This document shows positions 1 through 23,194 of a DNA stretch of 23,542 nucleotides, piece by piece (the first letter of the stretch is position 1; each line of letters starts with the position of its first letter). Position numbers and translations under genes: made by a program. This stretch comes from a virus (taxonomy: Duplodnaviria; Heunggongvirae; Uroviricota; Caudoviricetes). The notes under the pieces were generated by a model. The model did no database searches. It had not been told where the DNA came from and worked only from the letters and a program-made list of their open reading frames with translations. The DNA lies in IMG/VR virus record IMGVR_UViG_643348547_000006, one strand, 5' to 3'.

Positions 1-219
1 TCAAAGAGAGAGCGCCACCTGTCCTGATTTCATTGGATGCGGCTGAACCGGATTTGACTCTTTTGGCGTTGCAATCGAACGAACAAAAGTTTCATGGGTA
101 ACAAAAGTATGGCTGCAGTTAATGTTCTGGCACTGGTTGTAACGCTCTTTGGTCAATGAAGATACCTGAAAACTGCTGCGAGTATGGGCGGCACTTCCAC
201 ACAGTGGGCAAATCATCAT
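1..219 (-). CDS. ogr: Ogr/Delta-family zinc-finger late-gene transcription activator
   Basis: ORF 1..252 (-) contains CPLCG...CQNINCSHTF, a C-x2-C...C-x4-C zinc-finger pattern resembling P2 Ogr (72 aa). Start placed at the internal ATG (MMICPLCG, 217-219) with GGAG about 10 nt upstream; the ORF's first codon is GTG. Stop TGA at 1-3. Confidence 0.85.
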   Translation of the reverse strand: MMICPLCGSAAHTRSSFQVSSLTKERYNQCQNINCSHTFVTHETFVRSIATPKESNPVQPHPMKSGQVALSL

Positions 220-309
220 TTTTCGAGCTCTCCCCATTTTTGCTAAATTCACAATAATGATACCGCATTATTCCATTTTGCAAACTTAAAAGTTCTCCAT
301 TGCGAAGAA

Positions 310-1410
310 TCATTCCATTTCGAAATCATCAATCCTCACTTCAAGCTCCAGACTGGTTGTAAAACCGTTATCCGGGCTGACGGTATGTGTCAGAGTCGTA
401 ATGGTCCATTCCGCATCATCTATCGGCTGTTTAAAACCACTGACCTTCACAGGCATTTCCGTGTAGAGATCTGCCCGCCCTTCTGCCAGTTGTAGCGAAA
501 ATGACGCAACGCCGCGTTGCAGGCGTTCCCACTGCATTTTCGCCGCTCGTTCGGCGTTGCTCCGGTTGGCATAAGTGCGATTAAGTACCAGCACGTTTTC
601 ATCCGTACCCACCAGGTAATCGCCCTGCTTCGCTTCTGGCTCTTTCTTCTGCTTCTTAGTTCTGCGCTTACGCTTCACCGTGGTGCTTTCTTTCTTCGCA
701 GGTTCGCGGGTATGCAACCAGCTGGCAATTACGCCCGTGTAGGCTCCGCGATCTGCCAGGGTAAATCGGTGACTGTCGCCGTCCTTGCGTGTGATAGTGA
801 TCACTGGCAGAGGTTTACCAGTGGCGCTTTTGCCCTGCCCCTGCCGGATGAATAACAGATTGCCATTTTTCACCGACGCGATGGCACCGTACTGTCGCGC
901 CAGCCGCATCAGAAAACTGCCGTCACTCTCATTAGTCTGGTCTATATGCTCCACGGGCTTATCCGACAGGTCTTTACCCAGTGCCATCTTCAGCTTGTGC
1001 CGCGCGGCTATTTCCTTCACCACTTCCCCGACGGTGGTCTTATGCCACGATTTTTCACGGCGGGTATTCAGCGTTTCCCGAAAATCAGCACTTCGCGCCC
1101 GGATAGTCAGGCGGTCCGGTGCGCCAGTGTGTTCAATCTCGTCCACTGTGAATGCCCCTTTCGGGAAAAGCGGCTGCCCCTTCCAGCCCAGCGCCAGCGT
1201 AATAACCGCACCACGGCGCGGCAGCACGATTTTTCCGTCAGCGTCATCCAGCTCCAGATCAAGCTGGTCCGCTTCAAAGCCCCGGTTATCCGTCAGCGTC
1301 AAACTCATCAGGCGGTTATCCAGCACAGTGGTGATATCCCTGCCCTCAATACTGATGCTGAATGCGGGAGTTTTGTTGCCTTTGTTAAGCAGTTCAGAGC
1401 TGAAATTCAC
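310..1410 (-). CDS. D: P2 gpD-like tail protein
   Basis: 366-aa ORF lying between U and ogr as in P2; overlaps the U stop (GTGA). The ORF begins with GTG; true start not resolved. Confidence 0.8.
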   Translation of the reverse strand: MNFSSELLNKGNKTPAFSISIEGRDITTVLDNRLMSLTLTDNRGFEADQLDLELDDADGKIVLPRRGAVITLALGWKGQPLFPKGAFTVDEIEHTGAPDRLTIRARSADFRETLNTRREKSWHKTTVGEVVKEIAARHKLKMALGKDLSDKPVEHIDQTNESDGSFLMRLARQYGAIASVKNGNLLFIRQGQGKSATGKPLPVITITRKDGDSHRFTLADRGAYTGVIASWLHTREPAKKESTTVKRKRRTKKQKKEPEAKQGDYLVGTDENVLVLNRTYANRSNAERAAKMQWERLQRGVASFSLQLAEGRADLYTEMPVKVSGFKQPIDDAEWTITTLTHTVSPDNGFTTSLELEVRIDDFEME

Positions 1411-1892
1411 GACAGCAGCCCTCCCACCGTTTTACTGATATCGCTTAAGGCAGACGTTGCCGTGTCCTGCAGATTATTCAGTTGCGCACTGAGATCACCG
1501 AACATATCGGACAGGGATTCATCCACTCGTTTGAGCGACAGGGTGAACTCAATCCGGCGCGGCATACCGTCGCGGAAAAACTCCGTTTTAGTCTGATTCA
1601 GTCCCTCAATCACATACATGCCGTAAATCGTGCCGCTGCCTTCAATCAGGGGCCATGCTTTCCCCTGTTCTGCCATCTGCTCCAGTGCCAGCAACGACAG
1701 CCTGCCGCCTGTTATTTCCGGCATAAGAACACCGGAAAGCGTCAGCATGTCGTTTTCCGGTCCCAGAAACTGCGTGGACGGACGTCGGTTTACCCGACTG
1801 TTTGCCGCATGTCGCCAGCTGCGTTGATACTGCAGTTCCTGATACGGAACGGTGCGCAGCATAAACACGTACAATCCCAGCACCATCATCAT
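1407..1892 (-). CDS. U: P2 gpU-like tail protein
   Basis: 161-aa ORF; ATG at 1890-1892 overlaps the T stop (ATGA coupling); position between T and D matches P2. Confidence 0.85.
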   Translation of the reverse strand: MMMVLGLYVFMLRTVPYQELQYQRSWRHAANSRVNRRPSTQFLGPENDMLTLSGVLMPEITGGRLSLLALEQMAEQGKAWPLIEGSGTIYGMYVIEGLNQTKTEFFRDGMPRRIEFTLSLKRVDESLSDMFGDLSAQLNNLQDTATSALSDISKTVGGLLS

Positions 1893-4800
1893 GCGTCGTA
1901 TCCCCCCTGATCGCTGTAGTTACTCCTGGCTTTTGCCTTCAGCCTGCGTTCACGTTCATCAAGCTGGCGTGCCACCTCCCGCGCAATATCCTGCGCACTT
2001 TGTCCTGGCTGCGTCTGAATAATGATCTGCGTCGGTGCCTCAATCCGTTGAACGAGCGGCACAGTGGCTGCGCGACTCACAATTGCTTCTCCACCTTTCG
2101 CGGGAAGTGCCAAAGGGTGCAACGGTGGAAGCTCTGCTGGCGCGGCAGCAACGCCCATCATTCCGGCAACAACGGCAGCCAGTGCAGCTGTATTTCTCCG
2201 GCTGGTCACATTTGCCGGGCCGTTAACAATTTCCGGCCCGTTTTCACCGACGATGCCAAACTGCCCTCGCGGGATATACCCGCCGCTGTCATACATCCCC
2301 GCAAAGCCATATCCCCATGATGGAAAACCACCCGATGGCATCATCACTTTACCGTCTGCATTCACCGTCGCAGGTTGCTGACGCGTCACGCTTTCCGGCA
2401 GTTTTGCCTTTGCGGCCTCTTTACTGACAATGCCGAGCTTCTCCAGCAACCAGGAAACGCCGGATTTCAGGGAGTCCAGCGGATGCATGACCATATTCAG
2501 CCCTTCCGCCAGTGCCTCCCCGAATCGCCGCCCCATTGCCGCTGCACTCTGCAGTTCGGCAGAGGTCGACTTAACGGGCGTCAGCAGATCAGTAAACCAG
2601 CCCCACAGCGCCTGTACTTTGTCGCCAATCCACTGAAACACAGGCTTAAGTGGTTCGAATGCAGCACTGATGGGACCTGCCGCCGCTTTGAATCCTTCCA
2701 CCACGCCACCGAGAAATGCGGTGATGGGTTGCCAGTATTTCCAGACAACCAGCGCCACGCCCGCCAGTGCAGTAACCACAAGACCTATCGGACTGAGCAG
2801 AGCACCTAACAGACCAGATATGGCATACAGGGCAACGCGCAGCATCGCCAGCGGACCAGATGCAAGCACACGAAGCACCGCGCCTGCGGCAGCCAGTCCA
2901 CCGCGCAGTACCGCCAGAGGATTCATAAACATCACAGCAACAGCACGTAAACCGGATAATCCAGACCGCAAAAGTGCAACCGGCGCACCTGCTACAGTTT
3001 TAAGGACATTTCCCGTCAGTGATGCCGTGCGGCGCAAAGACGACAACGGCGCAGTAAGTAAACCTGCGGCGTTGCCCGATGAAGCAAGCCCGCGTCGCAG
3101 CAGTGCCAGTGGTGCGCCAGCCAGCCAGGACAACGCGCTGCTGGTTCGAGTTACTGCTGCCGTAACGGAAGATAACGTTTTGATACCCAGCACAGAGAAT
3201 CCCAGACGGATCACTGCCAGCGGCCCCAGCACTGCAGCCAGCGCCACCGCTAAGGTGCCGAGGCCGACGGTAACCGCAGCCACAACAGCCGATGCTTTCA
3301 TCAGTGTGCCTGTCAGTTCCGGGTTAGCTTCCACCCAGCGACGCAACGCCCCCGTGACGCTTTTCACCGTGTACAGAATATCCATCAGCGGCTGGCGCAG
3401 CGTTTCGCCCAGGCTGCTGAAGGTGTTCTGCGCTCCGGTTTTGACCAGCAACCACTGCGCAGAAAGTGAATCCTTGTTAATGTCGGATTCTTTCTGCATG
3501 GAGCCGAGCGCATCATTGCCCGCTGTCAGTTTTAACTGACGCTGCAGTTCCGGCAGGTTGTTTGCCAGTTTCGCCGCGTCATCGCCAAACTCTTTACCAA
3601 ACAACATAGTCATGGCAGACAGGCGCTTGTCCTGCGGCAGCGCGTTTACCTTCTCCAGCACGCGCTGGATGGTTCCCATCGCATCCTTCGTCATCTGCTT
3701 TTCAATCACTTCAGGATTGAGTTTCAGCAGATTCATCCCTTCAAAGAAACTTTTGCTTTGCATGGTGGCAATGGACAATTCACACACCATCGCGTTTGCT
3801 GCACTGGCTGCAACCTCTGGCGCAGCGCCCAGTGTCAGGAAGGTGGAACCCAGCGCCGCCGCTTTACGATAATCCAGACGGTCAGCCACACCGCCCAGAC
3901 GTTGCATCACATCAATGATGTCTGCCCCTTTCGACATGGCGTTATCATCCAGATAGTTCAGCGCATCACCGAGCTGTTCAATATTGCGGGTGGGGATTTT
4001 GTAGAGCTGGGCGATTTTCCCCAGACTTTCTGACAGTTCATCCGCTGGCAGCTCAAAGGCTGTTGCCGCCTTTGCTGCCGTACTGGCGAAGGCCAGCAGG
4101 TCACGTTTCTGATCTTCCCAACTGTCGTCAGGGTTTGCGACGTTCATGCGCGCGCCACCTTCAACCAGTGCAGCGAAATCCACAGCACCGTTTTCCATCG
4201 GCAACTGTTCGCTGGCAGCCTTGATGGCATCCTGCATTTCATAAAAACGTGCAGTGCGGTTGCCATTATCGTCACGCAGACCATTGACCTGCTTTGCCAC
4301 ACCTTTCATGGCATCTTCCATGCTGGTATAGCTTTTTACTGCCGCCATCACTGGTGCGCCCATTGCCAGCCCTGCAGCCGTGGTGGTGGCTCCGGCACCT
4401 GCAATACGATCACGCACCTCCAGCGAACGGGCATAACTGGCACGCGCTGCATTCATCCTGCGCTGAGCTTCCCCCAGTCGCTTCAGCCGCGCCTCCTGTT
4501 TCGAAAGTTCCTGGTTATAACGTGATGTTTCACGGGCTAAACGGGCAGTTGCTCCCGCATCGTCTTTCGCAGAAATTCCCGCCCGGTACAGTTCAGCACG
4601 CACAAGCGCCGTCTGCTGCTGCAGCTTTTTCTGGCGTTCTTCCAGGCGCTGAACAGCCAGCCGTTGACGGCCCAGAGCAACAACCTGACGTTGCGAAGGC
4701 GGCCCCATCGCTCCCAGTTCCTGACTGAGCAAATTTGCACGCTGGCGGGCATAGTTCAGCCTGTCGCCTAATTTCTGATTTTCTGCCTGCAGCTTTCGGA

Positions 4801-4966
4801 AGCTGTCCAGACTGCTCCCGGCCTGATCAAGCTGCTTTATTGCATCGCGGGATTTTTTGACAGCAGCAGCCAGTTCTCTTGAACTGGCCTGCGCAGATCG
4901 AAATGGGCGGGTGAGCTTGTCAACCGCATTAAGAATGACCTGCAGACGCAGGTTGTTATCACTCAT
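1889..4966 (-). CDS. T: Tail tape measure protein
   Basis: 1025-aa ORF with a coiled-coil-like N-terminal region, a Gly/Ala/Leu-rich hydrophobic core with ~22-aa tandem repeats, and a C-terminal region; immediately downstream of E/E'. ATG at 4964-4966. Confidence 0.9.
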   Translation of the reverse strand: MSDNNLRLQVILNAVDKLTRPFRSAQASSRELAAAVKKSRDAIKQLDQAGSSLDSFRKLQAENQKLGDRLNYARQRANLLSQELGAMGPPSQRQVVALGRQRLAVQRLEERQKKLQQQTALVRAELYRAGISAKDDAGATARLARETSRYNQELSKQEARLKRLGEAQRRMNAARASYARSLEVRDRIAGAGATTTAAGLAMGAPVMAAVKSYTSMEDAMKGVAKQVNGLRDDNGNRTARFYEMQDAIKAASEQLPMENGAVDFAALVEGGARMNVANPDDSWEDQKRDLLAFASTAAKAATAFELPADELSESLGKIAQLYKIPTRNIEQLGDALNYLDDNAMSKGADIIDVMQRLGGVADRLDYRKAAALGSTFLTLGAAPEVAASAANAMVCELSIATMQSKSFFEGMNLLKLNPEVIEKQMTKDAMGTIQRVLEKVNALPQDKRLSAMTMLFGKEFGDDAAKLANNLPELQRQLKLTAGNDALGSMQKESDINKDSLSAQWLLVKTGAQNTFSSLGETLRQPLMDILYTVKSVTGALRRWVEANPELTGTLMKASAVVAAVTVGLGTLAVALAAVLGPLAVIRLGFSVLGIKTLSSVTAAVTRTSSALSWLAGAPLALLRRGLASSGNAAGLLTAPLSSLRRTASLTGNVLKTVAGAPVALLRSGLSGLRAVAVMFMNPLAVLRGGLAAAGAVLRVLASGPLAMLRVALYAISGLLGALLSPIGLVVTALAGVALVVWKYWQPITAFLGGVVEGFKAAAGPISAAFEPLKPVFQWIGDKVQALWGWFTDLLTPVKSTSAELQSAAAMGRRFGEALAEGLNMVMHPLDSLKSGVSWLLEKLGIVSKEAAKAKLPESVTRQQPATVNADGKVMMPSGGFPSWGYGFAGMYDSGGYIPRGQFGIVGENGPEIVNGPANVTSRRNTAALAAVVAGMMGVAAAPAELPPLHPLALPAKGGEAIVSRAATVPLVQRIEAPTQIIIQTQPGQSAQDIAREVARQLDERERRLKAKARSNYSDQGGYDA

Positions 4967-5395
4967 CGTTGGCCCCGCTTCTCTGAATCGCTTTATACCG
5001 CCATTCCAGCACTTCGGTCAGCGGCATAACGTCAGTAACGGATGGCGGCCAGTGAAAAATGGTGGCGATATCTGCCACCAGATCGTCAACCGTCAGGCTG
5101 TCGGTAAACCGGCAAGCACCGACTTCTTCAACAAAAAAGTGACAACCTCAACCGACATGGCAGTGAGATCTGCCGGGTCCATCTCTGCAATTTCCTGTGC
5201 AGTCAGTGCCGGACTGGAGATGCGGGGGATCACGGTCATCATCGCGTTTACATCCATATCCATAATGGCCTGCAGGCGTGTACCGCGCAGCGCACCGGAC
5301 TGCGGTTTACGCAGCACAATTTCGGTGATTTCTGTTTTACCGCGCTTGATGGGGGTATCCAGTTGAATGGTCTTTTCAGTCTGCTTATCGCTCAT
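4959..5395 (-). CDS. E+E': Tail assembly chaperone gpE+E' (-1 programmed frameshift product)
   Basis: Slippery heptamer T-TTT-TTG on the minus strand at 5138..5132. Hand translation of the -1 frame from 5132 gives an open extension of about 57 codons (VEEVGACRFTDSLTVDDLVADIATIFHWPPSVTDVMPLTEVLEWRYKAIQRSGANDE) ending at TGA 4959-4961, which overlaps the T start (ATGAGTGA), as in P2. Confidence 0.7.
5093..5395 (-). CDS. E: Tail assembly chaperone gpE
   Basis: 100-aa ORF ending ...VTFLLKKSVLAGLPTA; ATG at 5393-5395 with AGGA upstream; contains the slippery site near its 3' end. Confidence 0.85.
   Translation of the reverse strand: MSDKQTEKTIQLDTPIKRGKTEITEIVLRKPQSGALRGTRLQAIMDMDVNAMMTVIPRISSPALTAQEIAEMDPADLTAMSVEVVTFLLKKSVLAGLPTA
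5132..5138 (-). other. -1 ribosomal frameshift slippery site (TTTTTTG)
   Basis: Plus strand reads caaaaaa at 5132-5138, i.e. TTTTTTG on the coding strand, in frame as T.TTT.TTG within E. Confidence 0.7.
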
Positions 5396-5449
5396 TTTGC
5401 TGTCCTGTCAATTGGGTTCTGGCGCGGTATCCCGCGCCGTTCAGATATA

Positions 5450-5965
5450 TCAGAGGCCGAGGGCGTTGCGGTGCGCTTCCATCAGGTCCACACCGTCCAC
5501 AATTTCCACCATGTTGATAAGGTCCACTTCATAGAGCACCTCACCATTGATGGTCAGCTTCGCGTAGCTGTTGGTACTGGTCACTTTGGTGGTGTTGCTT
5601 TCGCCCGTCTTCCACTCGCCGGAATCCACTTCTTTGTGACGTCCACGCACGACAAGCTCCACGGCCTGCACTTCCCCGGTATCGTCACGCTGAATAGAGC
5701 CGGTAAAGCGCAGCTGGATGCCATCCACCGTGGCTTTACCCATCTGTTTAAACAGCAGCAATTCAGTACCACCAATGGAAAATTCTGTATCCAGCGCACT
5801 GTCATCAAGCCCCAGATCCACATCCACCGCACCCGGCATTCCGCCGCCGCGATACTTCTCATATTTGCGGGTAAATTTCGGCAGCGTCAGCGACTCAACG
5901 ATCCCCTGCCAGTTGTTCCCGTCGTTAAACAGGTTCAGGTGTTTTAATTTGCGTGGTAAAGCCAT
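5450..5965 (-). CDS. FII: Tail tube protein gpFII
   Basis: 171-aa ORF directly downstream of the sheath gene; ATG 5963-5965 with AAGGGGA upstream. Confidence 0.9.
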   Translation of the reverse strand: MALPRKLKHLNLFNDGNNWQGIVESLTLPKFTRKYEKYRGGGMPGAVDVDLGLDDSALDTEFSIGGTELLLFKQMGKATVDGIQLRFTGSIQRDDTGEVQAVELVVRGRHKEVDSGEWKTGESNTTKVTSTNSYAKLTINGEVLYEVDLINMVEIVDGVDLMEAHRNALGL

Positions 5966-5974
5966 GTTGTCCCC

Positions 5975-7147
5975 TTACGCGCTGACCTGGCTGGCGAAAT
6001 TAACCAGGTACTGATCGGTGATGCGCTGACGCAGCATCAGGTTTTCAAGTGGCGGCACTGGCGTGTAGTCGTAGTCGATGGTGAGTTTTCCGGCTTTCAG
6101 CGTGTCTTTGTCGTTCACCGACTCATCCAGCCAGCAATCACCACCAATGAGATAGCCCTGACTGACCAGGCTGCGCATTTTGGCGCGGATACCTTCGATA
6201 ATGTCGCGGGCCAGCGACGGGTTAAGCGGTTTATCCACCGCCCACATGTGTGCTTCTGCCATCGTGTCCATCAGCACCTGCGCCGTGCGGGTGTAGTTTT
6301 CGAAGGCAAAGAGCGGGTCATCACTCAGGCAGCGGGAACCCCAGAAGCGGAAACCGTCTTTACGCACAAGCGTGGTGACGTCGTTCTGGTTCAGCAGACC
6401 TGCATCGGTTGCCGGGTCCTGCAGATCCCAGAACACATCTGCAGAAATTCCGGTGACACCGTTCACGCCCACGTTGGACAGGCTTTTGTGCCATCCGGTC
6501 TGCTCGTCAATTTTGGCGCGCAGACCAAGCGCACGGGCGGTGGCATATGCCGTTGCTTCGGCATTCAGCACCGTGTCCCAGCCAGTAAAGTCAGGCCAGA
6601 TCAGCATCCCTTCGCGCTGGCTGAAGTTTTCGCGGTAAGTGATCGCCTCCTGCACTGTCTTGCAGCCATACGCTGACAGGTAAGCAAATCCACGCAGGCT
6701 TTGCGCCACGCTCAGCAACTCAGTAGCTACCGCCTTGGTGTCGTGGCCTGGCACGCCGAGAATGCGCGGTTTAACGCCGAGCTGTGACTGGGCAGATAAC
6801 AGGGCTTTCATACCTGTTTTTTTACCTTCAGCAGTCACTGCGCCGATGATATTGGTCGTGGTTTCGTCTTCCGTTTCACCCTGCGGCACACGCACAACAA
6901 TGGTCACGGGTTTTGCCTGGTCAGCGATGGCATCCAGCGAACGGGCCAGAGTACCTGACTCACCCGCTTTACCGCTGGCAGTCAGCACATCAGTGATCAG
7001 CACGGGTTTATTAAGAGGAAACATTTTTGCATCGGCATCATCGCCCGTGCAGACCATACCCACGATGGCGGTGCTCACCGTGGTAATAGATCGGGTACCT
7101 TCGTTGACTTCAACAACGCGCACCCCGTGGTGGTAATCCTGAGCCAT
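5975..7147 (-). CDS. FI: Contractile tail sheath protein gpFI
   Basis: 390-aa ORF; ATG 7145-7147 with AGGAGG 8 nt upstream; first gene of the F-E-T-U-D block. Confidence 0.9.
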
Positions 7148-7222: not shown

Positions 7223-7242
7223 TTGTGTCGTTATTCACACAA
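7223..7242 (-). promoter_or_regulatory. Candidate Ogr-dependent late promoter element upstream of FI (TTGTGT-N8-ACACAA dyad)
   Basis: Perfect dyad ttgtgtcgttattcacacaa at 7223-7242, centred about 85 bp upstream of the FI ATG; fits the TGT-N12-ACA motif described for P2 late promoters. Confidence 0.45.
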
Positions 7243-7308: not shown

Positions 7309-8128
7309 GGCACTGTTGCAAAGTTAGCGATGAGGCAGCCTTTTGTCTTATTCAAAGGCCTTACATTTCAAAAACTCTGCTTACCAGGCGCATTTCGCCC
7401 AGGGGATCACCATAATAAAATGCTGAGGCCTGGCCTTTGCGTAGTGCACGCATCACCTCAATACCTTTGATGGTGGCGTAAGCCGTCTTCATGGATTTAA
7501 ATCCCAGCGTGGCGCCGATTATCCGTTTCAGTTTGCCATGATCGCATTCAATCACGTTGTTCCGGTACTTAATCTGTCGGTGTTCAACGTCAGACGGGCA
7601 CCGGCCTTCGCGTTTGAGCAGAGCAAGCGCGCGACCATAGGCGGGCGCTTTATCCGTGTTGATGAATCGCGGGATCTGCCACTTCTTCACGTTGTTGAGG
7701 ATTTTACCCAGAAACAGGTATGCAGCTTTGCTGTTACGACGGGAGGAGAGATAAAAATCGACAGTGCGGCCCCGGCTGTCGACGGCCCGGTACAGATACG
7801 CCCAGCGGCCATTGACCTTCACGTAGGTTTCATCCATGTGCCACGGGCAAAGATCGGAAGGGTTACGCCAGTACCAGCGCAGCCGTTTTTCCATTTCAGG
7901 CGCATAACGCTGAACCCAGCGGTAAATCGTGGAGTGATCGACATTCACTCCGCGTTCAGCCAGCATCTCCTGCAGCTCACGGTAACTGATGCCGTATTTG
8001 CAGTACCAGCGTACGGCCCACAGAATGATGTCACGCTGAAAATGCCGGCCTTTGAATGGGTTCATGTGCAGCTCCATCAGCAAAAAGGGATGATAAGTTT
8101 ATCACCACCGACTATTTGCAACAGCGCC
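7309..8128 (-). mobile_element. IS26-like (IS6 family) insertion sequence, copy 1, 820 bp, no target-site duplication
   Basis: Terminal 14-bp repeats GGCACTGTTGCAAA (7309-7322) and, on the other strand, GGCGCTGTTGCAAA (8115-8128); encodes the Tnp26-like transposase. Flanking octamers differ (CATTGATC vs AAAAGCGG). Confidence 0.9.
7361..8065 (-). CDS. tnp26: IS26-family DDE transposase
   Basis: 234 aa from MNPFKGRHFQRDIILWAVRWYCKYGISYRELQ..., recalled as Tnp26; ATG at 8063-8065. Translation is identical to the copy-2 transposase. Confidence 0.9.
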   Translation of the reverse strand: MNPFKGRHFQRDIILWAVRWYCKYGISYRELQEMLAERGVNVDHSTIYRWVQRYAPEMEKRLRWYWRNPSDLCPWHMDETYVKVNGRWAYLYRAVDSRGRTVDFYLSSRRNSKAAYLFLGKILNNVKKWQIPRFINTDKAPAYGRALALLKREGRCPSDVEHRQIKYRNNVIECDHGKLKRIIGATLGFKSMKTAYATIKGIEVMRALRKGQASAFYYGDPLGEMRLVSRVFEM

Positions 8129-11701: not shown

Positions 11702-11746
11702 AGGGAAAGGTTGCCATCAGGGGAAGAAAGGCGGCAGTGCTGCAAC

Positions 11747-11766: not shown

Positions 11767-11769
11767 AGA

Positions 11770-13538: not shown

Positions 13539-13539
13539 T

Positions 13540-14248: not shown

Positions 14249-14251
14249 AAT

Positions 14252-14455: not shown

Positions 14456-14919
14456 CAGATAAGCTCCACTGTGCAGTGCGGCGCGTCCTGTACCCGGCTG
14501 ATGGCCCAGCGGGCGTCACGCCATAAATCACCGCTGGCTTCCGCCAGTTCCTCGCCCCGCTTCACACCGGATGCCGTGGCGTCATAGTCCTGGTAACGTT
14601 CGTTGAGCATGGCGCGTGCCCAGCAGTAAACCGCGTTGAAATAGTGCTGAATGCGCTCACTTTTGCCGTCCAGCTGTTCCGCCGGAACCTCTGCCAGCGA
14701 GGCATACCCCAGCATCTGCTGGCATCTGCGAAACTCATACAGCTCTGCGTTGACCTCCGAAATTGCCGACAGCGCAACCTGCTTTAAACGCGGCTGCGTC
14801 ACCGTACCGTCAGTGCGCATCACACTGCGGAACTCCGACAGATCCACATCAGGCCAGAACGGCGTATTCCTGATGATTTCCGCCTGTTCCGGTGCCTGTT
14901 CTGGCGCAACAAACTTCAT
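14455..14919 (-). CDS. L: Head completion/stabilisation protein gpL
   Basis: ORF 14455..14982 begins with GTG; the ATG at 14917-14919 (MKFVAPEQ...) has AGGAGA 8 nt upstream. Internal region (IRNTPFWPDVD..., ELWRD.RWA) resembles P2 L. Confidence 0.8.
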   Translation of the reverse strand: MKFVAPEQAPEQAEIIRNTPFWPDVDLSEFRSVMRTDGTVTQPRLKQVALSAISEVNAELYEFRRCQQMLGYASLAEVPAEQLDGKSERIQHYFNAVYCWARAMLNERYQDYDATASGVKRGEELAEASGDLWRDARWAISRVQDAPHCTVELI

Positions 14920-15014
14920 GCTGCTTTCTCCTGAGATAGAGGGCGGTGGACGGGGTTTTGATGTGGCAGTGCCTTTCGCCACCCCGTGCCGCCCGTGCGC
15001 GGGGGCACGTTCTG

Positions 15015-15665
15015 TCAGCGGCTGTCATTGCGCAGTCTGCGCTCCAGCTGCTGTTTGTCTTTTTTCACGCCACAGCGGGGATCGAGCTGTAACGCATGGT
15101 TGAGATGATTAAGGGCGGAAGCCGGATTACTTTCACTCAGGACAGCGCCAATCGCTTTATGCAGACGCGCCCGTGACTGGTCCGGCATGTCCAGACCGTC
15201 TGTCAGCTCCAGCGTCTGCAGCAACAGATCGACATCAAAGCCGGTAGTGGCAAGCATTGCGCTCTGTGCCGCGTCTGCCATTTCCTCTGCCAGCACGGTT
15301 TGCACATTGCGGTTACCCAGCGGCATCACCCAGCCATGACGCAGGGCATGACGCCCGATCTCCAGCGCCCCGGCATAATCTCCGGCATCAATGCGCCACA
15401 GCATCACGTACATCAGCACGTCATCCTGTTGAGCGCCTCCGGCAGCCAGAACACCCTCTGCCCAGGCGGCGTATTTCGGCAGCAGCTCCACCTTGATTTC
15501 CGCTTTTTTGACCGTGGACTGAACGCCCTTGAGACGGCGGCGATCTTCCGCCAGTTGCAGCAGCATCAGGTCATAGCCCGACGCGTGGCGAACGCTGCCG
15601 CCCTCACGGGCGGCCTGTTCAGCCTGAACGCGCAGGCGATGCTGCCGTGCGGGACTCAGGCTCAT
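15015..15665 (-). CDS. M: Terminase small (endonuclease) subunit gpM
   Basis: 216 aa; N-terminal and central similarity to recalled P2 M (QDD.LM.VMLWR.D.GD.AGALEI...); ATG 15663-15665. Confidence 0.8.
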   Translation of the reverse strand: MSLSPARQHRLRVQAEQAAREGGSVRHASGYDLMLLQLAEDRRRLKGVQSTVKKAEIKVELLPKYAAWAEGVLAAGGAQQDDVLMYVMLWRIDAGDYAGALEIGRHALRHGWVMPLGNRNVQTVLAEEMADAAQSAMLATTGFDVDLLLQTLELTDGLDMPDQSRARLHKAIGAVLSESNPASALNHLNHALQLDPRCGVKKDKQQLERRLRNDSR

Positions 15666-15668
15666 GAA

Positions 15669-16727
15669 TTACGCTCCGGTTTCTGCTGCGGCGGCGCTAA
15701 AATCGCCAATCTGGATGTTTTCCACCAGTGCAGCGCAGCGGTAGTCCTCAACCACATAGGCTTCGTTAACGGATTCAAAGTTTTCAATCCGGTCACGTTT
15801 CGGGTTGTCGATAACTGAACGGCGGCGGGTGTCTTCCTGCCAGTAAATGGACAGGTTATCCAGACGGGTGATCAGCAGTGCATTCGGCGGGAAGAACGGC
15901 GCACGCACGGCCTGCAGGCCACCCATGCGTTTCTGACTGATGATCATATCGGCAGCCAGTTTTTCACTGTTTTCCTGCTCTTTGTTGACCAGCGGGAAAT
16001 ACTTGTCAGACAGCAGTTCACGACCGCAAATCACCACCAGATCGTCATCGTCCTGGTAGACCACGTCGATAAGCTCATTGACGGCATCCATCACCACAGC
16101 GTCCAGGTTGGCATATTCGCCACCTTTACCGACTTTCACCGCGCCCGGTGTGGTTTCACCGCCCGTGGTGGTGCTGCCCATAACGTGATCCGGTGCATCC
16201 TCACGGATTTTCTGCAGCCAGCCTTTGTTCACATCCTGCAGCAGCGGGTTTTCACTACGGTTGGAGGTTTTCGCACGCTTCACGCCGTTAAAGCCGATCA
16301 TGATGCGGTCCAGTGCCTGACGTTTCACGATGGCGTCACGGATACGCACCTGGAAATCCTGAAACTTCGCCCACAGGTCCAGCTTCGCGTAGGTCAGTAC
16401 CGTGTCAAAGTTGGTCTGCTCGCATTTATATTCCACATCGACCATCAGCGTCGGATCGACAGGTTCACGCTCTTTCGCGGTGGTATCAGTGGTTCCGGCA
16501 ATGGTGCTGCCAACTCCCAACCCCAGCAGCTGACCGGACTGCTCAGTCACTGGCGTGACGTTAATCAGCGTCAGGAAAGCGGCGGACTGCTGGATCTGGT
16601 CTTCCAATGTCTGCTGCACGGACGGCTCTACGGTGAACTTGCTGGACAGTTCTTCAACTGCCACACCGTTCAGACGCGCCAGTTGCTGCAGATAAGCGTT
16701 AAAAGCAAAGCGGGTATTCTTCTTCAT
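15669..16727 (-). CDS. N: Major capsid protein gpN
   Basis: 352-aa ORF between O and M; ATG 16725-16727; size and position match P2 N. Confidence 0.9.
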   Translation of the reverse strand: MKKNTRFAFNAYLQQLARLNGVAVEELSSKFTVEPSVQQTLEDQIQQSAAFLTLINVTPVTEQSGQLLGLGVGSTIAGTTDTTAKEREPVDPTLMVDVEYKCEQTNFDTVLTYAKLDLWAKFQDFQVRIRDAIVKRQALDRIMIGFNGVKRAKTSNRSENPLLQDVNKGWLQKIREDAPDHVMGSTTTGGETTPGAVKVGKGGEYANLDAVVMDAVNELIDVVYQDDDDLVVICGRELLSDKYFPLVNKEQENSEKLAADMIISQKRMGGLQAVRAPFFPPNALLITRLDNLSIYWQEDTRRRSVIDNPKRDRIENFESVNEAYVVEDYRCAALVENIQIGDFSAAAAETGA

Positions 16728-16743
16728 CAGGTTTTGTGCTCCA

Positions 16744-17577
16744 TCAGCAATTGGTCAGAGTGTCAGCGGGGGCGTTACCGCCTGTTGCACGCTGGCGGTA
16801 GTCCTGGCGGCTGTCTTCATGGCTCAGCTTGTCCACCAGTTCGTTAAAGGCGGTCTGCTGTGCCTGCAGGGCAGTCTCCAGCTCAGACAGGCGTTCTTCC
16901 TGCTCAGACAGGGATTTTTCGGTGCGCGCACTCAGGTTCTGCTGCTCAGTGGCGACCAGTTCCACGGCCTTATGCACATCAGAGAACCGGGCGTCATCGG
17001 ACTGCTCTTTTTTGGTGAACAGCGCCGTGACACGGGCAAACAGGGACGGTTTGTCATCCTGGATTTCTTCCAGTTCGATCACCGTTTCCTCTGCAGCGGT
17101 AAAAAGATTGGCGGGATTCTGCTTGCGGTTTGCCAGCGGGTTATGGGCTGCACTGGCGCTGAATGTCAGCATTTCAGTGCCCAGACTGGCAGGGTCATCA
17201 GTGGCAGCCAGGCCGACCAGGTAGGCTTTGCCCGTATCAGCGAACTTCGGGCTAACTTCCATAGATGTGAATAATTTCTGGCCTTTTTTCACCAGTTCCA
17301 CCAGGGACTCCGTTGGCTCAACGTCGGCATACAGCGCCATCTTGCCTGCCAGCGGACCTTCCTTGATTTCTTCAGCAAACAGCGCCGTCACCTTGCCGTA
17401 GCGGTTAAAGGTGCTGTCCGGCAGATAAGACTTGATGTGCTCAAGGTTAATCAGCGCGGTATACACCGCCGGGTTGTAGCTGGCTGCCATCTGTTCCAGC
17501 CATTCACGCTGGATTTCGCGTCCGTCGGTGGTGGCACCTTCCACCCCGATGCGAAAACGCTTTGCTTTCACTGTCAT
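16744..17577 (-). CDS. O: Capsid scaffolding protein gpO
   Basis: 277 aa; close to recalled P2 O (FRIGVEG...DGR.I......YNP.VY...INLEH...YLVGLA.TDDPASLGTE...ATGG..AD.L.NC). Confidence 0.85.
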   Translation of the reverse strand: MTVKAKRFRIGVEGATTDGREIQREWLEQMAASYNPAVYTALINLEHIKSYLPDSTFNRYGKVTALFAEEIKEGPLAGKMALYADVEPTESLVELVKKGQKLFTSMEVSPKFADTGKAYLVGLAATDDPASLGTEMLTFSASAAHNPLANRKQNPANLFTAAEETVIELEEIQDDKPSLFARVTALFTKKEQSDDARFSDVHKAVELVATEQQNLSARTEKSLSEQEERLSELETALQAQQTAFNELVDKLSHEDSRQDYRQRATGGNAPADTLTNC

Positions 17578-17654: not shown

Positions 17655-17674
17655 TTGTACCGACAACCACACAA
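17655..17674. promoter_or_regulatory. Candidate Ogr-binding dyad (TTGT-N12-ACAA) in the divergent P/O promoter region
   Basis: ttgtaccgacaaccacacaa at 17655-17674, centred about 87 bp upstream of the O ATG and 55 bp upstream of the P ATG. Confidence 0.45.
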
Positions 17675-17719: not shown

Positions 17720-18826
17720 ATGAACACCACACTGACACCCGCAGATCTCGATCCCCGTCGGCAGGCCATGCTGCTGTACTTTCAGGGATACCGCGTAGCC
17801 CGCATTGCTGAAATGCTGGGCGAGAAAGTTGCAACCGTTCACAGCTGGAAAAAACGCGACAAGTGGGGTGACTATGGGCCGCTGGATCAGATGCAGCTCA
17901 CCACCGCCGCACGCTACTGCCAGCTCATCATGAAGGAGCACAAAGAAGGGAAAGATTTCAAAGAGATTGACCTGCTGGCGCGCCAGTCGGAGCGCCACGC
18001 GCGGATCGGCAAGTTTAACAATGGCGGCAACGAAGCCGACTTAAACCCTAACGTCGCCAACCGCAATAAAGGCCCACGCCGTCAGCCGGAAAAGAATGTT
18101 TTCACCGATGAGCAGATTGAGAAGCTGGAAGAAATCTTCCATTCCTCCATGTTCAACTACCAGCGCCACTGGTGGGAAGCCGGAAAAACCAACCGCATCC
18201 GCAACCTGCTGAAGTCACGCCAGATCGGCGCGACCTTTTACTTTGCCCGTGAAGCCCTGATTGACGCCCTGCTTACCGGACGTAACCAGATTTTCCTTTC
18301 CGCCAGCAAGGCACAGGCCCACGTCTTTAAGCAGTACATCATCGACTTCGCCAAAGAAGTGGGGGTGGAGTTGAAAGGCGATCCGATGGTGCTTCCTAAC
18401 GGGGCCACGCTTTACTTCCTCGGCACCAATGCCCGCACGGCCCAGAGTTATCACGGCAACCTGTATCTGGATGAATATTTCTGGATACCGAAATTCCAGG
18501 AGCTGCGCAAAGTGGCTTCCGGTATGGCTATTCACAAAAAATGGCGACAAACCTATTTTTCCACGCCATCCAGCCTGACACACAGTGCTTATCCGTTCTG
18601 GTCCGGTGCGCTGTTCAACCGTGGGCGCAACAAGGCCGACAAGGTGGACATCGACCTGTCCCACAGCAATCTGGCCCCCGGCCTGCTGTGCGCAGACGGG
18701 CAATACCGCCAGATAGTCACCGTGGAAGATGCGGTGCGCGGCGGCTGTAACCTGTTCGACCTTGACCAGTTGCGCATGGAGTACAGCCCGGACGAATACC
18801 AGAACCTGCTGATGTGCGAGTTTGTG
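17720..18826 (+). pseudogene. P: Terminase large (ATPase) subunit gpP, 5' portion, interrupted by IS26
   Basis: ORF 17720..18853 reads about 369 codons of P and then 8 IS-encoded codons (GAVANSRW) before a stop inside the IS26 end. Confidence 0.85.
18819..18826. repeat. 8-bp target-site duplication AGTTTGTG (left copy) of IS26 copy 2
   Basis: Identical octamer immediately flanks both ends of the 820-bp element. Confidence 0.85.
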
Positions 18827-19646
18827 GGCGCTGTTGCAAATAGTCGGTGGTGATAAACTTATCATCCCTTTTTGCTGATGGAGCTGCACATGAACCCATT
18901 CAAAGGCCGGCATTTTCAGCGTGACATCATTCTGTGGGCCGTACGCTGGTACTGCAAATACGGCATCAGTTACCGTGAGCTGCAGGAGATGCTGGCTGAA
19001 CGCGGAGTGAATGTCGATCACTCCACGATTTACCGCTGGGTTCAGCGTTATGCGCCTGAAATGGAAAAACGGCTGCGCTGGTACTGGCGTAACCCTTCCG
19101 ATCTTTGCCCGTGGCACATGGATGAAACCTACGTGAAGGTCAATGGCCGCTGGGCGTATCTGTACCGGGCCGTCGACAGCCGGGGCCGCACTGTCGATTT
19201 TTATCTCTCCTCCCGTCGTAACAGCAAAGCTGCATACCTGTTTCTGGGTAAAATCCTCAACAACGTGAAGAAGTGGCAGATCCCGCGATTCATCAACACG
19301 GATAAAGCGCCCGCCTATGGTCGCGCGCTTGCTCTGCTCAAACGCGAAGGCCGGTGCCCGTCTGACGTTGAACACCGACAGATTAAGTACCGGAACAACG
19401 TGATTGAATGCGATCATGGCAAACTGAAACGGATAATCGGCGCCACGCTGGGATTTAAATCCATGAAGACGGCTTACGCCACCATCAAAGGTATTGAGGT
19501 GATGCGTGCACTACGCAAAGGCCAGGCCTCAGCATTTTATTATGGTGATCCCCTGGGCGAAATGCGCCTGGTAAGCAGAGTTTTTGAAATGTAAGGCCTT
19601 TGAATAAGACAAAAGGCTGCCTCATCGCTAACTTTGCAACAGTGCC
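18827..19646 (+). mobile_element. IS26-like (IS6 family) insertion sequence, copy 2, 820 bp, with 8-bp target-site duplication
   Basis: Ends GGCGCTGTTGCAAA (18827-18840) and TTTGCAACAGTGCC (19633-19646). Transposase and antisense-ORF translations are identical to copy 1 up to the element boundary. Confidence 0.9.
18890..19594 (+). CDS. tnp26: IS26-family DDE transposase
   Basis: 234 aa from ATG 18890-18892; identical translation to copy 1. Confidence 0.9.
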   Translation: MNPFKGRHFQRDIILWAVRWYCKYGISYRELQEMLAERGVNVDHSTIYRWVQRYAPEMEKRLRWYWRNPSDLCPWHMDETYVKVNGRWAYLYRAVDSRGRTVDFYLSSRRNSKAAYLFLGKILNNVKKWQIPRFINTDKAPAYGRALALLKREGRCPSDVEHRQIKYRNNVIECDHGKLKRIIGATLGFKSMKTAYATIKGIEVMRALRKGQASAFYYGDPLGEMRLVSRVFEM

Positions 19647-19654
19647 AGTTTGTG
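19647..19654. repeat. 8-bp target-site duplication AGTTTGTG (right copy) of IS26 copy 2
   Basis: Matches 18819-18826 exactly. Confidence 0.85.
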
Positions 19655-20314
19655 GACGATCTCGCGTCCGTATTTCCGCTCAGCGAGCTGCAGGCGTGCA
19701 TGGTGGACAGCTGGGAAGTCTGGACCGACTTTCATGCACTGGCTCTGCGCCCGTTTGGCTGGCGCGAAGTGTGGATCGGTTATGACCCGGCAAAAGGTAC
19801 GCAAAACGGCGACAGCGCCGGATGCGTGGTGGTGGCACCGCCAGCCGTGCCTGGTGGTAAGTTCCGCATTCTTGAGCGTCACCAGTGGCGCGGGATGGAC
19901 TTCCGCGCCCAGGCTGACGCCATCAAAAAACTGACCGAACAGTACAACGTGACCTATATCGGTATCGACTCAACCGGCGTTGGTCACGGGGTTTATGAGA
20001 ACGTGAAAGCGTTCTTTCCTGCCGTCCGGGAGTTTGTCTACAACCCCAATGTTAAAAACGCCCTGGTACTCAAGGCCTACGACATTATCAGCCACCGCCG
20101 TCTGGAGTTTGACGCCGGGCACACCGACATTGCGCAGTCATTTATGGCAATCCGTCGCGCTACCACTGCCAGTGGCAACCGCCCGACCTATGAAGCCAGC
20201 CGCAGCGAAGAAGCCAGCCATGCCGATCTGGCCTGGGCAACAATGCACGCACTGTTTAACGAACCGCTGCAGGGCGAGTCCGCCAATACCAGCAATATTG
20301 TGGAGATTTTTTGA
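19647..20314 (+). pseudogene. P: Terminase large subunit gpP, 3' portion
   Basis: Removing the IS and one duplication copy restores a continuous frame ...LLMCEFVDDLASVFPLSELQ...; stop TGA at 20312-20314 overlaps the Q ATG. Confidence 0.85.
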
Positions 20315-21348
20315 TGGGAAAGAGTAAGAAGAACCGCGCTGCGTCGACGAAACAGATCCAGCATAAAAGCCAGACTTCAGCCGAAGCATTCAGCTTCGGT
20401 GATCCCGTTCCTGTTCTGGACCGCCGCGAACTGCTGGACTATGTGGAATGCGTACAGATGGAGTGTTGGTACGAGCCACCCGTAAGTTTTGACGGACTGG
20501 CGCGCACCTTCCGGGCTGCCGTGCATCACAGTTCCCCGATTGCAGTAAAGTGCAACATTCTGACCAGTACCTATATCCCTCATCCGCTGCTCAGCCAACA
20601 GGCTTTTTCGCGTTTTGTACAGGACTATCTGGTATTTGGTAACGCCTACCTGGAGAAACGCACGAACCGATTCGGTGAAGTTATCGCCCTTGAGCCTGCG
20701 CTGGCAAAATACACCCGACGCGGGTTAGACCTGGATACCTACTGGTTTGTGCAATACGGTATGACAACCCAGCCGTATCAGTTCACGAAAGGCAGCATTT
20801 TTCAGCTGATGGAACCGGACATCAACCAGGAGATCTACGGCCTGCCCGGCTATCTTTCTGCCATCCCATCCGCTTTGCTCAACGAGTCCGCCACGCTGTT
20901 CCGCCGCAAGTATTACATTAACGGCAGTCATGCCGGCTTCATCATGTACATGACCGATGCCGCGCAGAACCAGGAGGATGTGAACAACCTCCGCAACGCA
21001 ATGAAAAGCGCCAAAGGTCCGGGTAACTTCCGCAATCTGTTTATGTACTCGCCTAATGGTAAAAAAGACGGACTTCAGATTATCCCGTTGTCAGAAGTCG
21101 CAGCGAAGGATGAATTTCTGAATATCAAAAATGTTAGTCGCGATGACATGATGGCAGCACACCGCGTGCCGCCACAGATGATGGGGATAATGCCAAATAA
21201 TGTTGGGGGGTTTGGGGATGTGGAGAAGGCAAGTAATGTATTTGTACGCAATGAACTAATACCATTGCAAAAAAGATTTGAAGAGTTAAATGTTTGGTTA
21301 AAAGAAAAAGTGATACAGTTCGAAGAATATAAACTTCATTCAAATTAG
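20314..21348 (+). CDS. Q: Portal protein gpQ
   Basis: ATG 20314-20316 overlaps the P stop (TGATG); 344 aa, the size I recall for P2 Q. The last ~50 codons are markedly AT-rich. Confidence 0.85.
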   Translation: MGKSKKNRAASTKQIQHKSQTSAEAFSFGDPVPVLDRRELLDYVECVQMECWYEPPVSFDGLARTFRAAVHHSSPIAVKCNILTSTYIPHPLLSQQAFSRFVQDYLVFGNAYLEKRTNRFGEVIALEPALAKYTRRGLDLDTYWFVQYGMTTQPYQFTKGSIFQLMEPDINQEIYGLPGYLSAIPSALLNESATLFRRKYYINGSHAGFIMYMTDAAQNQEDVNNLRNAMKSAKGPGNFRNLFMYSPNGKKDGLQIIPLSEVAAKDEFLNIKNVSRDDMMAAHRVPPQMMGIMPNNVGGFGDVEKASNVFVRNELIPLQKRFEELNVWLKEKVIQFEEYKLHSN

Positions 21349-21354
21349 CTTTAA

Positions 21355-21373: not shown

Positions 21374-21477
21374 AGAACCTTTATCGCCATTTTAGATAAA
21401 AAGCAAAAAATGGATCAGTAATATGAACCGCCCCGGGAATCCTGGAGACTAAACTTCCTGAGAAAGAGGTAAACAGG

Positions 21478-21804
21478 ATGACTAAAAATACTCGTTTTTC
21501 CCCCGAAGTCCGTCAACGGGCAGTCCGTATGGTTCTGGAAAGTCAGAGCGAATATGACTCACAATGGGCGACAATTTGTTCCATTGCTCCAAAGATTGGC
21601 TGTACGCCGGAGACTCTGCGTGTCTGGGTTCGCCAGCATGAGCGGGATACCGGGGGCGGTGATGGAGGGCTCACCACCGCTGAACGTCAGCGTCTGAAAG
21701 AGCTGGAACGTGAAAATCGTGAACTGCGCCGCAGTAACGATATCCTTCGCCAGGCTTCCGCTTATTTTGCGAAGGCGGAGTTCGACCGCCTCTGGAAAAA
21801 ATGA
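21478..21804 (+). CDS. IS3-family transposase OrfA (helix-turn-helix / leucine-zipper subunit)
   Basis: 108 aa, [23 protein letters not shown]...; recalled as IS629/IS1203 OrfA. Confidence 0.85.
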
Positions 21805-22691
21805 TGCCACTGCTGGATAAGCTGCGTGAGCAGTACGGGGTCGGACCGCTATGCAGCGAACTGCATATTGCCCCGTCAACGTATTACCACTGTCAGCAAC
21901 AGCGACATCATCCGGATAAACGCAGTGCCCGTGCGCAGCGCGATGACTGGCTGAAGAAAGAGATACAGCGCGTATACGATGAAAATCACAAGGTATACGG
22001 TGTGCGTAAAGTCTGGCGTCAGTTGTTACGGGAAGGTATCAGAGTGGCCAGATGCACTGTGGCACGTCTCATGGCGGTTATGGGACTTGCCGGTGTTCTC
22101 CGGGGTAAAAAGGTCCGTACGACCATCAGCCGGAAAGCCGTTGCCGCAGGCGACCGCGTAAACCGTCAGTTCGTGGCAGAACGACCTGACCAGCTGTGGG
22201 TGGCTGATTTTACTTACGTCAGCACATGGCGGGGCTTCGTCTATGTGGCGTTCATCATTGATGTGTTTGCCGGATACATCGTGGGGTGGCGGGTCTCATC
22301 GTCCATGGAAACGACATTCGTGCTGGATGCACTGGAGCAGGCGTTATGGGCCCGTCGACCGTCCGGCACGGTCCATCACAGTGATAAAGGTTCTCAGTAT
22401 GTATCGCTGGCCTACACACAGCGGCTTAAGGAAGCCGGATTACTGGCATCAACAGGAAGTACAGGCGACTCGTATGACAACGCGATGGCGGAGAGCATCA
22501 ATGGTCTTTACAAAGCGGAGGTAATACACCGTAAGAGCTGGAAAAACCGTGCAGAAGTGGAACTGGCCACACTCACGTGGGTGGACTGGTATAACAATCG
22601 ACGATTGCTGGAAAGGCTGGGCCATACTCCTCCGGCAGAAGCAGAAAAAGCTTATTATGCTTCCATCGGAAACGATGATCTGGCAGCCTGA
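21801..22691 (+). CDS. IS3-family transposase OrfB (DDE catalytic domain); OrfAB fusion predicted by -1 frameshift
   Basis: 296-aa ORF in the -1 frame relative to orfA, overlapping at the A-run GGAAAAAATGA; contains DDE-type motifs ([15 protein letters not shown]). Confidence 0.85.
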
Positions 22692-22733
22692 GTTCACAGA
22701 TAAAACACTCTCCAGGAAACCCGGGGCGGTTCA

Positions 22734-23133
22734 GGTGACCAAATACCGAATTACCTTTGTAAGAACGAAGGGGAAGAAAAACAGAAGCATCCCTATCAGT
22801 AAAGAGCTTTACGAAGAGATCATGGCGTTTGATGGGTTCAATTTCTTCACAGACTGCTATTTTCAATTTTTATCCGTGATGGAAAAAACGTCTATCGTGC
22901 TCCCTCGCGGTCAACTGACACACGTTCTGCGCCATACTTTTGCGGCGCACTTCATGATGTCGGGTGGAAACATCCTGGCCTTACAAAAAATTCTCGGACA
23001 CCACGATATAAAAATGACTATGCGTTACGCACATCTGGCACCGGATCATCTGGAAACGGCGCTCCGTTTCAATCCTCTGGCAACATTGCCAAGTGGCGAC
23101 AAAGTGGCGGCAGCGGTTGGCATTACCCCGTAA
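22734..23133 (+). pseudogene. int: Tyrosine integrase, C-terminal catalytic fragment (5'-truncated at the IS629 boundary)
   Basis: Frame open from the IS end; encodes ...RTKGKKNRSIPISKELYEEI...HVLRHTFAAHFMMSGGNILALQKILGHHDIKMTMRYAHLAPDH, i.e. the Lys, His-x-x-Arg, His and Tyr motifs of tyrosine recombinases; the N-terminal domain and first catalytic Arg are absent. Confidence 0.75.
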
Positions 23134-23151
23134 TAACCACCACTGACCACC

Positions 23152-23187
23152 AATCTAACTTATTGTTTCTAATCTAACTTATTGTTT
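23152..23187 (+). repeat. Tandem direct repeat (2 x 17 bp AATCTAACTTATTGTTT, 2-bp spacer) in the attL region
   Basis: Read directly from sequence, 19 bp after the int stop; could be integrase arm-type sites or part of the att core. Confidence 0.5.
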
Positions 23188-23194
23188 TCATTAA

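Follow-up and report, generated by a model that had tools for sequence, protein, structure and literature searches.

A P2-like prophage remnant in ptrR of Escherichia coli, with intact late and lysis genes beside insertion-sequence damage

Why should a prophage that has been broken by three insertion sequences (IS) still carry some 25 full-length late and lysis genes? The question is raised by a viral stretch of 23,542 nucleotides, IMG/VR record IMGVR_UViG_643348547_000006 (the window, in what follows, is this whole stretch), of which positions 1-23206 are the late half of a P2-family (Peduoviridae) prophage that splits the E. coli gene ptrR (yneJ). An original prediction, made from the letters of the window, offered two answers, either that the decay is very recent or that tail and lysis functions are being retained. 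The first is favoured here, with a probability of about 0.9: the late genes are intact because the IS and deletion damage is too recent for point mutations to have built up. The element itself is unremarkable, a leftover of a P2/186-type prophage that can no longer move, and belongs to a known family, with its best matches in E. coli O7:K1 CE10, N32, AR_0013 and AF57.

The late and lysis open reading frames (ORFs), from ogr through Q, are full length, lie in P2 order and do number 25, as had been claimed. Premature stops and frameshifts in the structural genes had been named in advance as the result that would overturn this; in 27 gene segments, translated with coordinates transferred from RefSeq annotation, neither internal stops nor frameshifts were found. 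Full-length blastp matches to 22 P2 proteins were obtained in the order of the P2 genome, and genes with a P2 counterpart align over essentially their whole length at 33-68% amino acid identity. Pfam and NCBIfam models confirm Ogr_Delta, Phage_GPD, P2_GpU, the tape measure, the E-type chaperone, the tube (Phage_tube), the sheath, the portal and LysC, with further matches to the Pfam families GPO, Phage_cap_P2 and Tail_P2_I. K, Y and lysA are of non-P2 types (Phage_lysozyme, Phage_holin_2_3 and LysA/DNZ54_00345, respectively). The ogr product is 51% identical to P2 Ogr over 72 of 72 amino acids and identical to the CE10 copy. The genes are as follows.

1-219, minus strand: ogr, Ogr/Delta zinc-finger late-gene activator of 72 amino acids, intact (PF04606, E=5e-22)
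310-7147, minus strand: F operon, all genes intact, 100% or near-100% identical to CE10
310-1410, minus strand: D, intact
1407-1892, minus strand: U, intact
1889-4966, minus strand: T, tape measure, intact
5093-5395, minus strand: E, intact; the E+E' product ends at 4959
5450-5965, minus strand: FII, tube, intact
5975-7147, minus strand: FI, sheath, intact
9274-11701, minus strand: baseplate genes, all intact (V 11123-11701, W 10767-11126, J 9872-10780, I 9274-9879)
11770-17577, minus strand: O operon, all genes intact by P2 alignment, family profiles and CE10 comparison
11770-12216, minus strand: S, intact
12209-12640, minus strand: R, intact
12603-12851 (or to 12893), minus strand: lysC, intact
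12736-13164, minus strand: lysB, intact
13161-13538, minus strand: lysA, intact
13540-14052, minus strand: K, lysozyme, intact
14033-14248, minus strand: Y, holin, intact
14252-14455, minus strand: X, intact
14455-14919, minus strand: L, intact
15015-15665, minus strand: M, small terminase, intact
15669-16727, minus strand: N, capsid, intact
16744-17577, minus strand: O, scaffold, intact
20314-21348, plus strand: Q, portal, intact; a hairpin similar to the tQ terminator comes after it

The compact joins between these genes are likewise preserved, and the overlapping stop/start junctions and frameshift site described earlier were found again. ATGA overlaps occur at T/U, V/W, I/H and lysA/lysB, a GTGA overlap at U/D, and TGATG at L/X and P/Q. 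On the minus strand, positions 5138-5132 read T_TTT_TTG in the frame of E, a slippery heptamer and predicted -1 programmed frameshift site giving E+E'; the -1 frame after it is open to 4959, where it overlaps the start of T.

What this intactness can mean depends on how far the remnant has diverged. In about 18.7 kb of coding sequence the window differs from CE10 by four substitutions (one synonymous, three non-synonymous) and from AF57 by three (one synonymous, two non-synonymous). Stop-creating changes make up 3.4% of the possible substitutions in the late and lysis genes, and about 0.1 nonsense hits are expected, so that intact ORFs are the neutral expectation and selection is not needed to account for them. 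The commonly quoted short-term rate for E. coli is a few 10^-7 per site per year, and on that rate the approximately 2x10^-4 differences per site amount to centuries at most. The distribution is correspondingly narrow. Of the 5,426 complete E. coli genomes, only four carry the integration in ptrR together with the junction between Q and the IS3-family element, and none has the two IS26 copies (maximum coverage of the window 93%), these copies being seen only in a few SRA assemblies. The half of the original prediction that proposed recent decay is thus borne out, while retention proves unneeded and in part contradicted.

The ratio of non-synonymous to synonymous change (dN/dS, omega), proposed earlier as a check against close relatives, was calculated and cannot separate recent decay from retention, as it is powerless against close relatives and historical against distant ones. 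Against the close relatives omega is about 1 on four changes. Against active, complete relatives it is 0.07 for the E. coli 64EVA prophage (98.6% identity) and about 0.08 for 'Klebsiella phage KP12' (97%), the KP12 total leaving out T, whose alignment is gapped, and including a 3' segment of P that is one base out of frame. Omega on reconstructed P is 0.03, and the lysB values of 0.4-1.2 are not meaningful because this gene overlaps lysC in another frame. The low values against active relatives arise from divergence built up during life as a phage, and are silent on retention in the host.

The damage itself is of another kind. Three IS elements had been counted in the window, and three are present: two identical, inverted copies of IS26 and one IS3-family element similar to IS629/IS1203. 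That H, P and int are all disrupted by IS holds for P, which is split by the second IS26 copy (IS26-B); H, instead, is cut by a 2.4-kb deletion at the first (IS26-A), and int has no IS inside it, two-thirds of the gene being deleted.

7309-8128, minus strand: IS26-A, with Tnp26 at 7361-8065, a 100% match to annotated IS26
8102-9277, minus strand: H', N-terminal 383 codons of the tail fibre plus 8 codons read into IS26; receptor-binding C-terminus gone
17720-20314, plus strand: P, large terminase, split at codon 369 by IS26-B, as judged from the intact P of relatives
18827-19646, plus strand: IS26-B, simply inserted, with the 8-bp target AGTTTGTG duplicated on either side (18819-18826 and 19647-19654)
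21381-21423, minus strand: last 43 nt of the cargo gene that follows Q in intact 64EVA, from comparison with 64EVA
21424-22733, plus strand: IS3-family element, IS629/IS1203-like, 1310 bp, with 25-nt inverted repeats
21478-21804 and 21801-22691, plus strand: orfA and orfB of the IS3 element, with an ALIL frameshift pseudoknot at 21759-21875
22734-23133, plus strand: int', last 133 codons of a tyrosine integrase (350 amino acids in CE10)

Both IS26 copies have the features of that element, with a length of 820 bp, 14-bp terminal inverted repeats and a single DDE transposase of about 234 amino acids of the IS6 family (NF033587, E=1.3e-81). They are 100% identical, lie in inverted orientation with 10,698 bp between them, and match at 100% annotated IS26 copies on many plasmids, including one CE10 plasmid. 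In each copy one end reads GGCACTGTTGCAAA and the other GGCGCTGTTGCAAA (8115-8128, 18827-18840); the GGCGCTGTTGCAAA end marks a circulating IS26 variant rather than a local mutation, since identical 820-bp copies occur on many plasmids.

IS26-A has no target-site duplication (flanks CATTGATC versus AAAAGCGG) and stands in place of 2,379 bp that are present in CE10. With this DNA were lost the last 133 codons of H, two tail-fibre assembly genes (one of them tfaE), an invertible fibre segment with a gp53-like alternative fibre tip, and a DNA invertase; G-type chaperones are absent because the tail-fibre assembly genes lie within the loss. What is left, H', aligns to residues 1-364 of the 669 of P2 H, the CE10 protein having 516 amino acids. 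Intramolecular replicative transposition of IS26 in cis leaves a copy without a target-site duplication beside missing DNA (He et al., 2015; PMC4471558). The state of IS26-A fits such an adjacent deletion, and recombination between two direct IS26 copies would give the same result, so that either may have operated. As in the published cases, one copy in the window has an 8-bp duplication and the other none beside missing DNA, and no difference separates the two from one another or from copies on plasmids; unlike those cases, the target is a chromosomal prophage rather than a resistance plasmid, and neither a resistance gene nor an inversion is involved. Transposition in trans was also considered and is ruled out, as the DNA that the two copies enclose keeps the same order and orientation as in IS-free relatives; the flanking octamers, moreover, do not show the match in inverted orientation that is the signature of an in-trans inversion. 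IS26-B is simpler: when it is removed together with one 8-bp repeat, a P ORF of 1767 nt is restored that is 100% identical to P of both CE10 and 64EVA.

The IS3 element was recognised by its ALIL pseudoknot (RF01497, 120 bits), by NF033516 and by 100% matches annotated as IS3 family. Near relatives are annotated as IS1203 family, and from this annotation together with the inverted-repeat sequence the element is called IS629/IS1203-like. Its left end lies 75 bp past Q and its right end abuts int'. Between Q and int' the cargo, a cos-like site, replication endonuclease, methylase, cII, apl and CI have been lost. No 3-4 bp target duplication flanks the element in the window (ATA versus GGT), and the flanks differ also in CE10 and AF57, which is consistent with flanking deletions. 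The right-hand junction of this one copy has three different neighbours, in CE10 (L002 29545/29546), the window (22733/22734) and AF57 (L001 29464/29465), which points to repeated nested deletions from one IS end. CE10 shares the left junction but keeps a cII fragment, CI and the whole of int; in AF57 the deletion runs 73 bp further into int than it does in the window. In intact relatives a cos-like site is found about 1.4 kb past Q (P2 cos pattern, up to 5 mismatches), and the window holds no match to that pattern at up to 3 or up to 5 mismatches.

The closest relatives allow these events to be placed in order. The prophage of CE10 (NC_017646.1, 1,760,874-1,789,306), N32, AR_0013 and AF57 occupies the same ptrR site and has the same Q-IS3 junction; IS elements and deletions excepted, CE10 and AF57 match the window collinearly at 99.95-100% identity, and identity across the late genes is in this range. 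CE10 has no IS26, and its H, tfa genes, invertase, P, CI and int are intact. It differs further in an in-frame 81-bp tandem duplication in R, the tail completion gene (513 versus 432 nt; L002 19878-20039, window 12319-12399), which neither the window nor AF57 has, and in an ISL3-like ISEc53 with a ClbS/DfsB-family four-helix-bundle gene between CI and int (L002 31072-32829). ClbS homologues are colibactin self-protection proteins, and the CE10 gene may be IS-borne cargo. AF57, besides its larger loss of int, has a 3.6-kb FI-H inversion that splits both genes (L001 12189-15793; window 6189-6195 and 8228-8234). Its endpoints share an inverted 7-nt ATACCTT, and either aberrant action of the DNA invertase next to it or a microhomology event may have produced it. 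Among SRA data, runs SRR30348991, SRR20168719 and SRR13992328 carry the prophage in ptrR; Logan assemblies hold the exact H'-IS26 fusion protein and the truncated P', and two contigs (L006, L008) show the double-IS26 state at 100% identity to window 8099/8118-18856. A third contig (L007, from SRR13992328) combines both the IS26-A and the Q-IS3 junction with a P that is still intact, and IS26-A therefore preceded IS26-B; it also has a 3,020-bp deletion of its own, from J to lysA (window 10225-13244). Each sister lineage thus has a different structural lesion, some of them in tail or lysis genes, which fits ongoing, unconstrained decay.

From these comparisons a stepwise disabling by mobile-element events, rather than by point mutation, can be proposed. 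A 186/P2-type temperate phage would have integrated into ptrR in a recent ancestor of a narrow E. coli lineage that comprises CE10, N32, AR_0013, AF57 and the strain of the window. The IS629/IS1203-like element would then have landed just past Q, with loss of the adjoining cos region and replication genes, a state common with CE10. In the lineage of the window a new deletion from the same IS end would have taken two-thirds of int together with cII, apl and CI. Next, the fibre region would have been entered by an IS26 that does not differ from the CE10 plasmid copy, and 2.4 kb beside it would have been lost by intramolecular replicative transposition in cis or by recombination between two IS26 copies. 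Finally, a second IS26 copy would have inserted cleanly into the terminase gene P.

The product is disabled as a phage. Excision is precluded by the truncated int and the absence of Cox/Apl, replication by the absence of an A or B gene, packaging of DNA by the split P and the missing cos, and the formation of adsorbing tails by the truncation of H at codon 383 of 516 and the loss of the chaperones. The remnant therefore lacks, in part or in whole, each set that a functional P2-like prophage combines: integrase, repressor and replication genes; cos with terminase; and fibre with chaperone.

Some considerations weigh against recent decay as the explanation. CI is deleted, yet ogr and a complete lysis cassette are kept, so that regulatory silencing or a tolerated low expression must be assumed. 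The assignment of cos is a putative one, made from a 14/19 match to P2 cos in two relatives. With three to four substitutions, moreover, selection on the remnant may be acting while the power to detect it is nil.

The best-surviving alternative is that host selection keeps the tail and lysis genes as a domesticated module, be it a tailocin-like weapon, a lysis device or a reservoir against or for P2-like phages and P4-type satellites. The 25 ORFs, three Ogr boxes and E/E' frameshift site that remain intact, the keeping of ogr, and the survival of the element through several rearrangements in at least five lineages could all be read in this way. R-type tailocins (pyocins derived from P2 tails) likewise consist of contractile-tail genes and a lysis cassette without replication or packaging, and sheath, tube, baseplate, tape measure and lysis genes are all intact in the window. 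Tailocins, however, keep working fibres and chaperones and have shed their head genes, whereas here the reverse is seen: the receptor-binding part of the fibre and both chaperone genes are deleted, so that no adsorbing tail can form, and Q, O, N, M and L stand intact beside the tail genes, which would be unexpected in a tailocin. The combination that marks a tailocin, of a functional fibre with chaperone, loss of head and packaging genes, and control of its own, is thus not found in the remnant. Sister elements damage the very genes in question (L007 is without J through lysA; FI and H are split in AF57), the divergence is too low for intactness to be informative, and the lineage is very narrow. 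Domestication is accordingly judged quite improbable.

A narrower form of host benefit, to which we give somewhat less credence again, is a trap, suggested by the lack of a repressor beside a retained ogr, three Ogr-dependent operons and a complete holin-endolysin-spanin cassette. Transactivation by an incoming P2-like phage or a P4-type satellite would lead to premature lysis, or to assembly poisoned by the truncated fibre and terminase subunits (H' and P'). If true, such a trap would be a case of superinfection interference by a prophage remnant.

More doubtful still is the notion that the inverted IS26 copies and the 10.7 kb from H' to P' form a compound unit mobilising phage structural and lysis genes. 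Two 820-bp copies that are 100% identical and flank 10,698 bp might suggest it, as might the high activity of IS26 on plasmids. The intervening DNA, however, is collinear with IS-free relatives at its native place; the outer flanks (CATTGATC ... AGTTTGTG) show no duplication and IS26-B has a complete one of its own, from which it follows that the two copies came separately and in situ. L007 holds one copy without the other, and in searches of SRA assemblies the H'-P' unit was not seen in any other context. Least credible of all is a still functional, inducible prophage whose lesions are assembly artefacts, for although IS elements are classic sites of misassembly, independent SRA assemblies repeat both IS26 junction ORFs exactly, the Q-IS3 junction stands in four complete genomes, and the early region is missing rather than scrambled.

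With recent decay as the preferred reading, the remnant can be set beside its better known relatives. P2 (AF063097) and 186-type Peduoviridae have the same gene order, Q P / O N M L X Y K lysA lysB lysC R S / V W J I H / FI FII E E' T U D ogr, and P2 shares the Ogr-type activator, TGT-N12-ACA late promoters and the T_TTT_TTG site at E/E'. The proteins differ from those of P2 in being only 33-68% identical, with a holin, endolysin and LysA of other families. Unlike P2, the relatives of the window carry a CI/CII lysogeny module of 186-like type and, where P2 has Z/fun, an invertible fibre segment; the window itself is without the early region, cos, G-type chaperones and cargo hotspots. Complete relatives exist at other attachment (att) sites, 97-98.6% identical and carrying int, CI, replication genes and a cos-like site. 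The prophage of 64EVA (NZ_CP138399.1) and KP12 (OM835953), at 97-98.6% nucleotide identity over the late region and 100% for P of 64EVA, are full-length, at about 33 kb. Both contain int, CI, CII, replication endonuclease and methylase genes as well as a cos-like site and hotspot cargo, and both occupy another att site (ybjL/rcdA). Several records that bear Klebsiella phage names (OM835953 and OK4903xx-OK4904xx) are 96-97% identical to the late region of the window; that of KP12 is labelled Vequintavirinae and 'partial', which looks like a problem of taxonomy or labelling.

The region between Q and cos is a known defence hotspot of P2, and it is deleted in the window. Variable cargo is present between Q and the cos-like site in 64EVA (L005 25151-27296), KP12 (L003 17656-20863) and other intact relatives, encoding hypothetical proteins and in some cases TIR-domain or P-loop NTPase proteins. 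In the remnant both classic P2 cargo hotspots are empty or deleted, no cargo gene is found, and intergenic gaps are of 95 bp or less, barring IS DNA and promoter regions, in agreement with the earlier view that the window holds no novel defence or other system. An Rfam scan of the window at gathering thresholds returned the IS3 ALIL pseudoknot only, and no tRNAs.

Regulatory sites of the late operons are kept as well.

7224-7241, minus strand: late promoter PF, Ogr-box dyad TGT-N12-ACA that precedes the FI start codon by 77-94 nt
11748-11765, minus strand: late promoter PV, Ogr-box dyad within the 68 bp that separate S and V
17656-17673, no strand assigned: Ogr-box dyad between divergent promoters PO and PP, analogous to the annotated P2 site
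220-309, minus strand: D-ogr intergenic region with a putative ogr promoter, found by inspection of the sequence

The PF dyad corresponds in position to the annotated P2 pF activator site, and the three dyads occupy all three gaps in which P2 has Ogr-binding sites. Across the window eight TGT-N12-ACA dyads were found against 6.3 expected, which is not significant, so that their placement is informative and their number is not. Since the Ogr boxes are kept and ogr is intact, the late operons could respond to Ogr, whether it is made by the remnant or supplied by an incoming P2-like phage or P4-type satellite. A palindrome at 253-272, AATAATG-N6-CATTATT, overlaps the putative -10 of the ogr promoter, where it could serve as an operator. 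No counterpart of it is present in the CI/apl intergenic region of CE10, and that region shares no k-mers of at least 8 nt with the region upstream of ogr, where a CI operator had been sought.

The boundaries of the element follow from its host site, flanked in the E. coli chromosome by sad/glsB on one side and yneK on the other.

23134-23206, no strand assigned: right arm of the prophage, with the direct repeat AATCTAACTTATTGTTT present twice in the window sequence
23207-23542, plus strand: 3' fragment of host ptrR (yneJ), from the start of homology in genomes with an empty site

The right end, taken from such empty-site genomes rather than from an att repeat, falls at about 23206, with ptrR homology restarting at about 23207, and not at 23194 as first placed. 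Of the 283 profile positions of the PtrR model NF047711, 180-282 are matched by window 23204-23542. As the window opens at the ogr stop codon, the left end of the prophage lies just outside it. An att core was sought by comparing the CE10 left junction with the right end of the window, and was rejected, as the sole direct repeat was an 11-nt chance match inside ogr/int. The AATCTAACTTATTGTTT repeats are probably arm sites of Int, to judge from their place in the right arm. PtrR is a regulator of putrescine utilisation whose gene adjoins sad and glsB, and the lineage with the split gene is presumably without PtrR function.

Overall, the element is a defective prophage of a well-known family, hit by two very common enterobacterial IS types; its importance is small beyond correct annotation. 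It is to be annotated as a defective Peduoviridae prophage in ptrR with two IS26 and one IS3-family element, with H', P' and int' as pseudogenes and ptrR as a disrupted host gene. Many intact ORFs in a cryptic prophage are no evidence of selection when close relatives are nearly identical, and the locus illustrates that in prophages of clinical E. coli inactivation begins with IS insertions, IS-adjacent deletions and inversions, point mutations following only much later.

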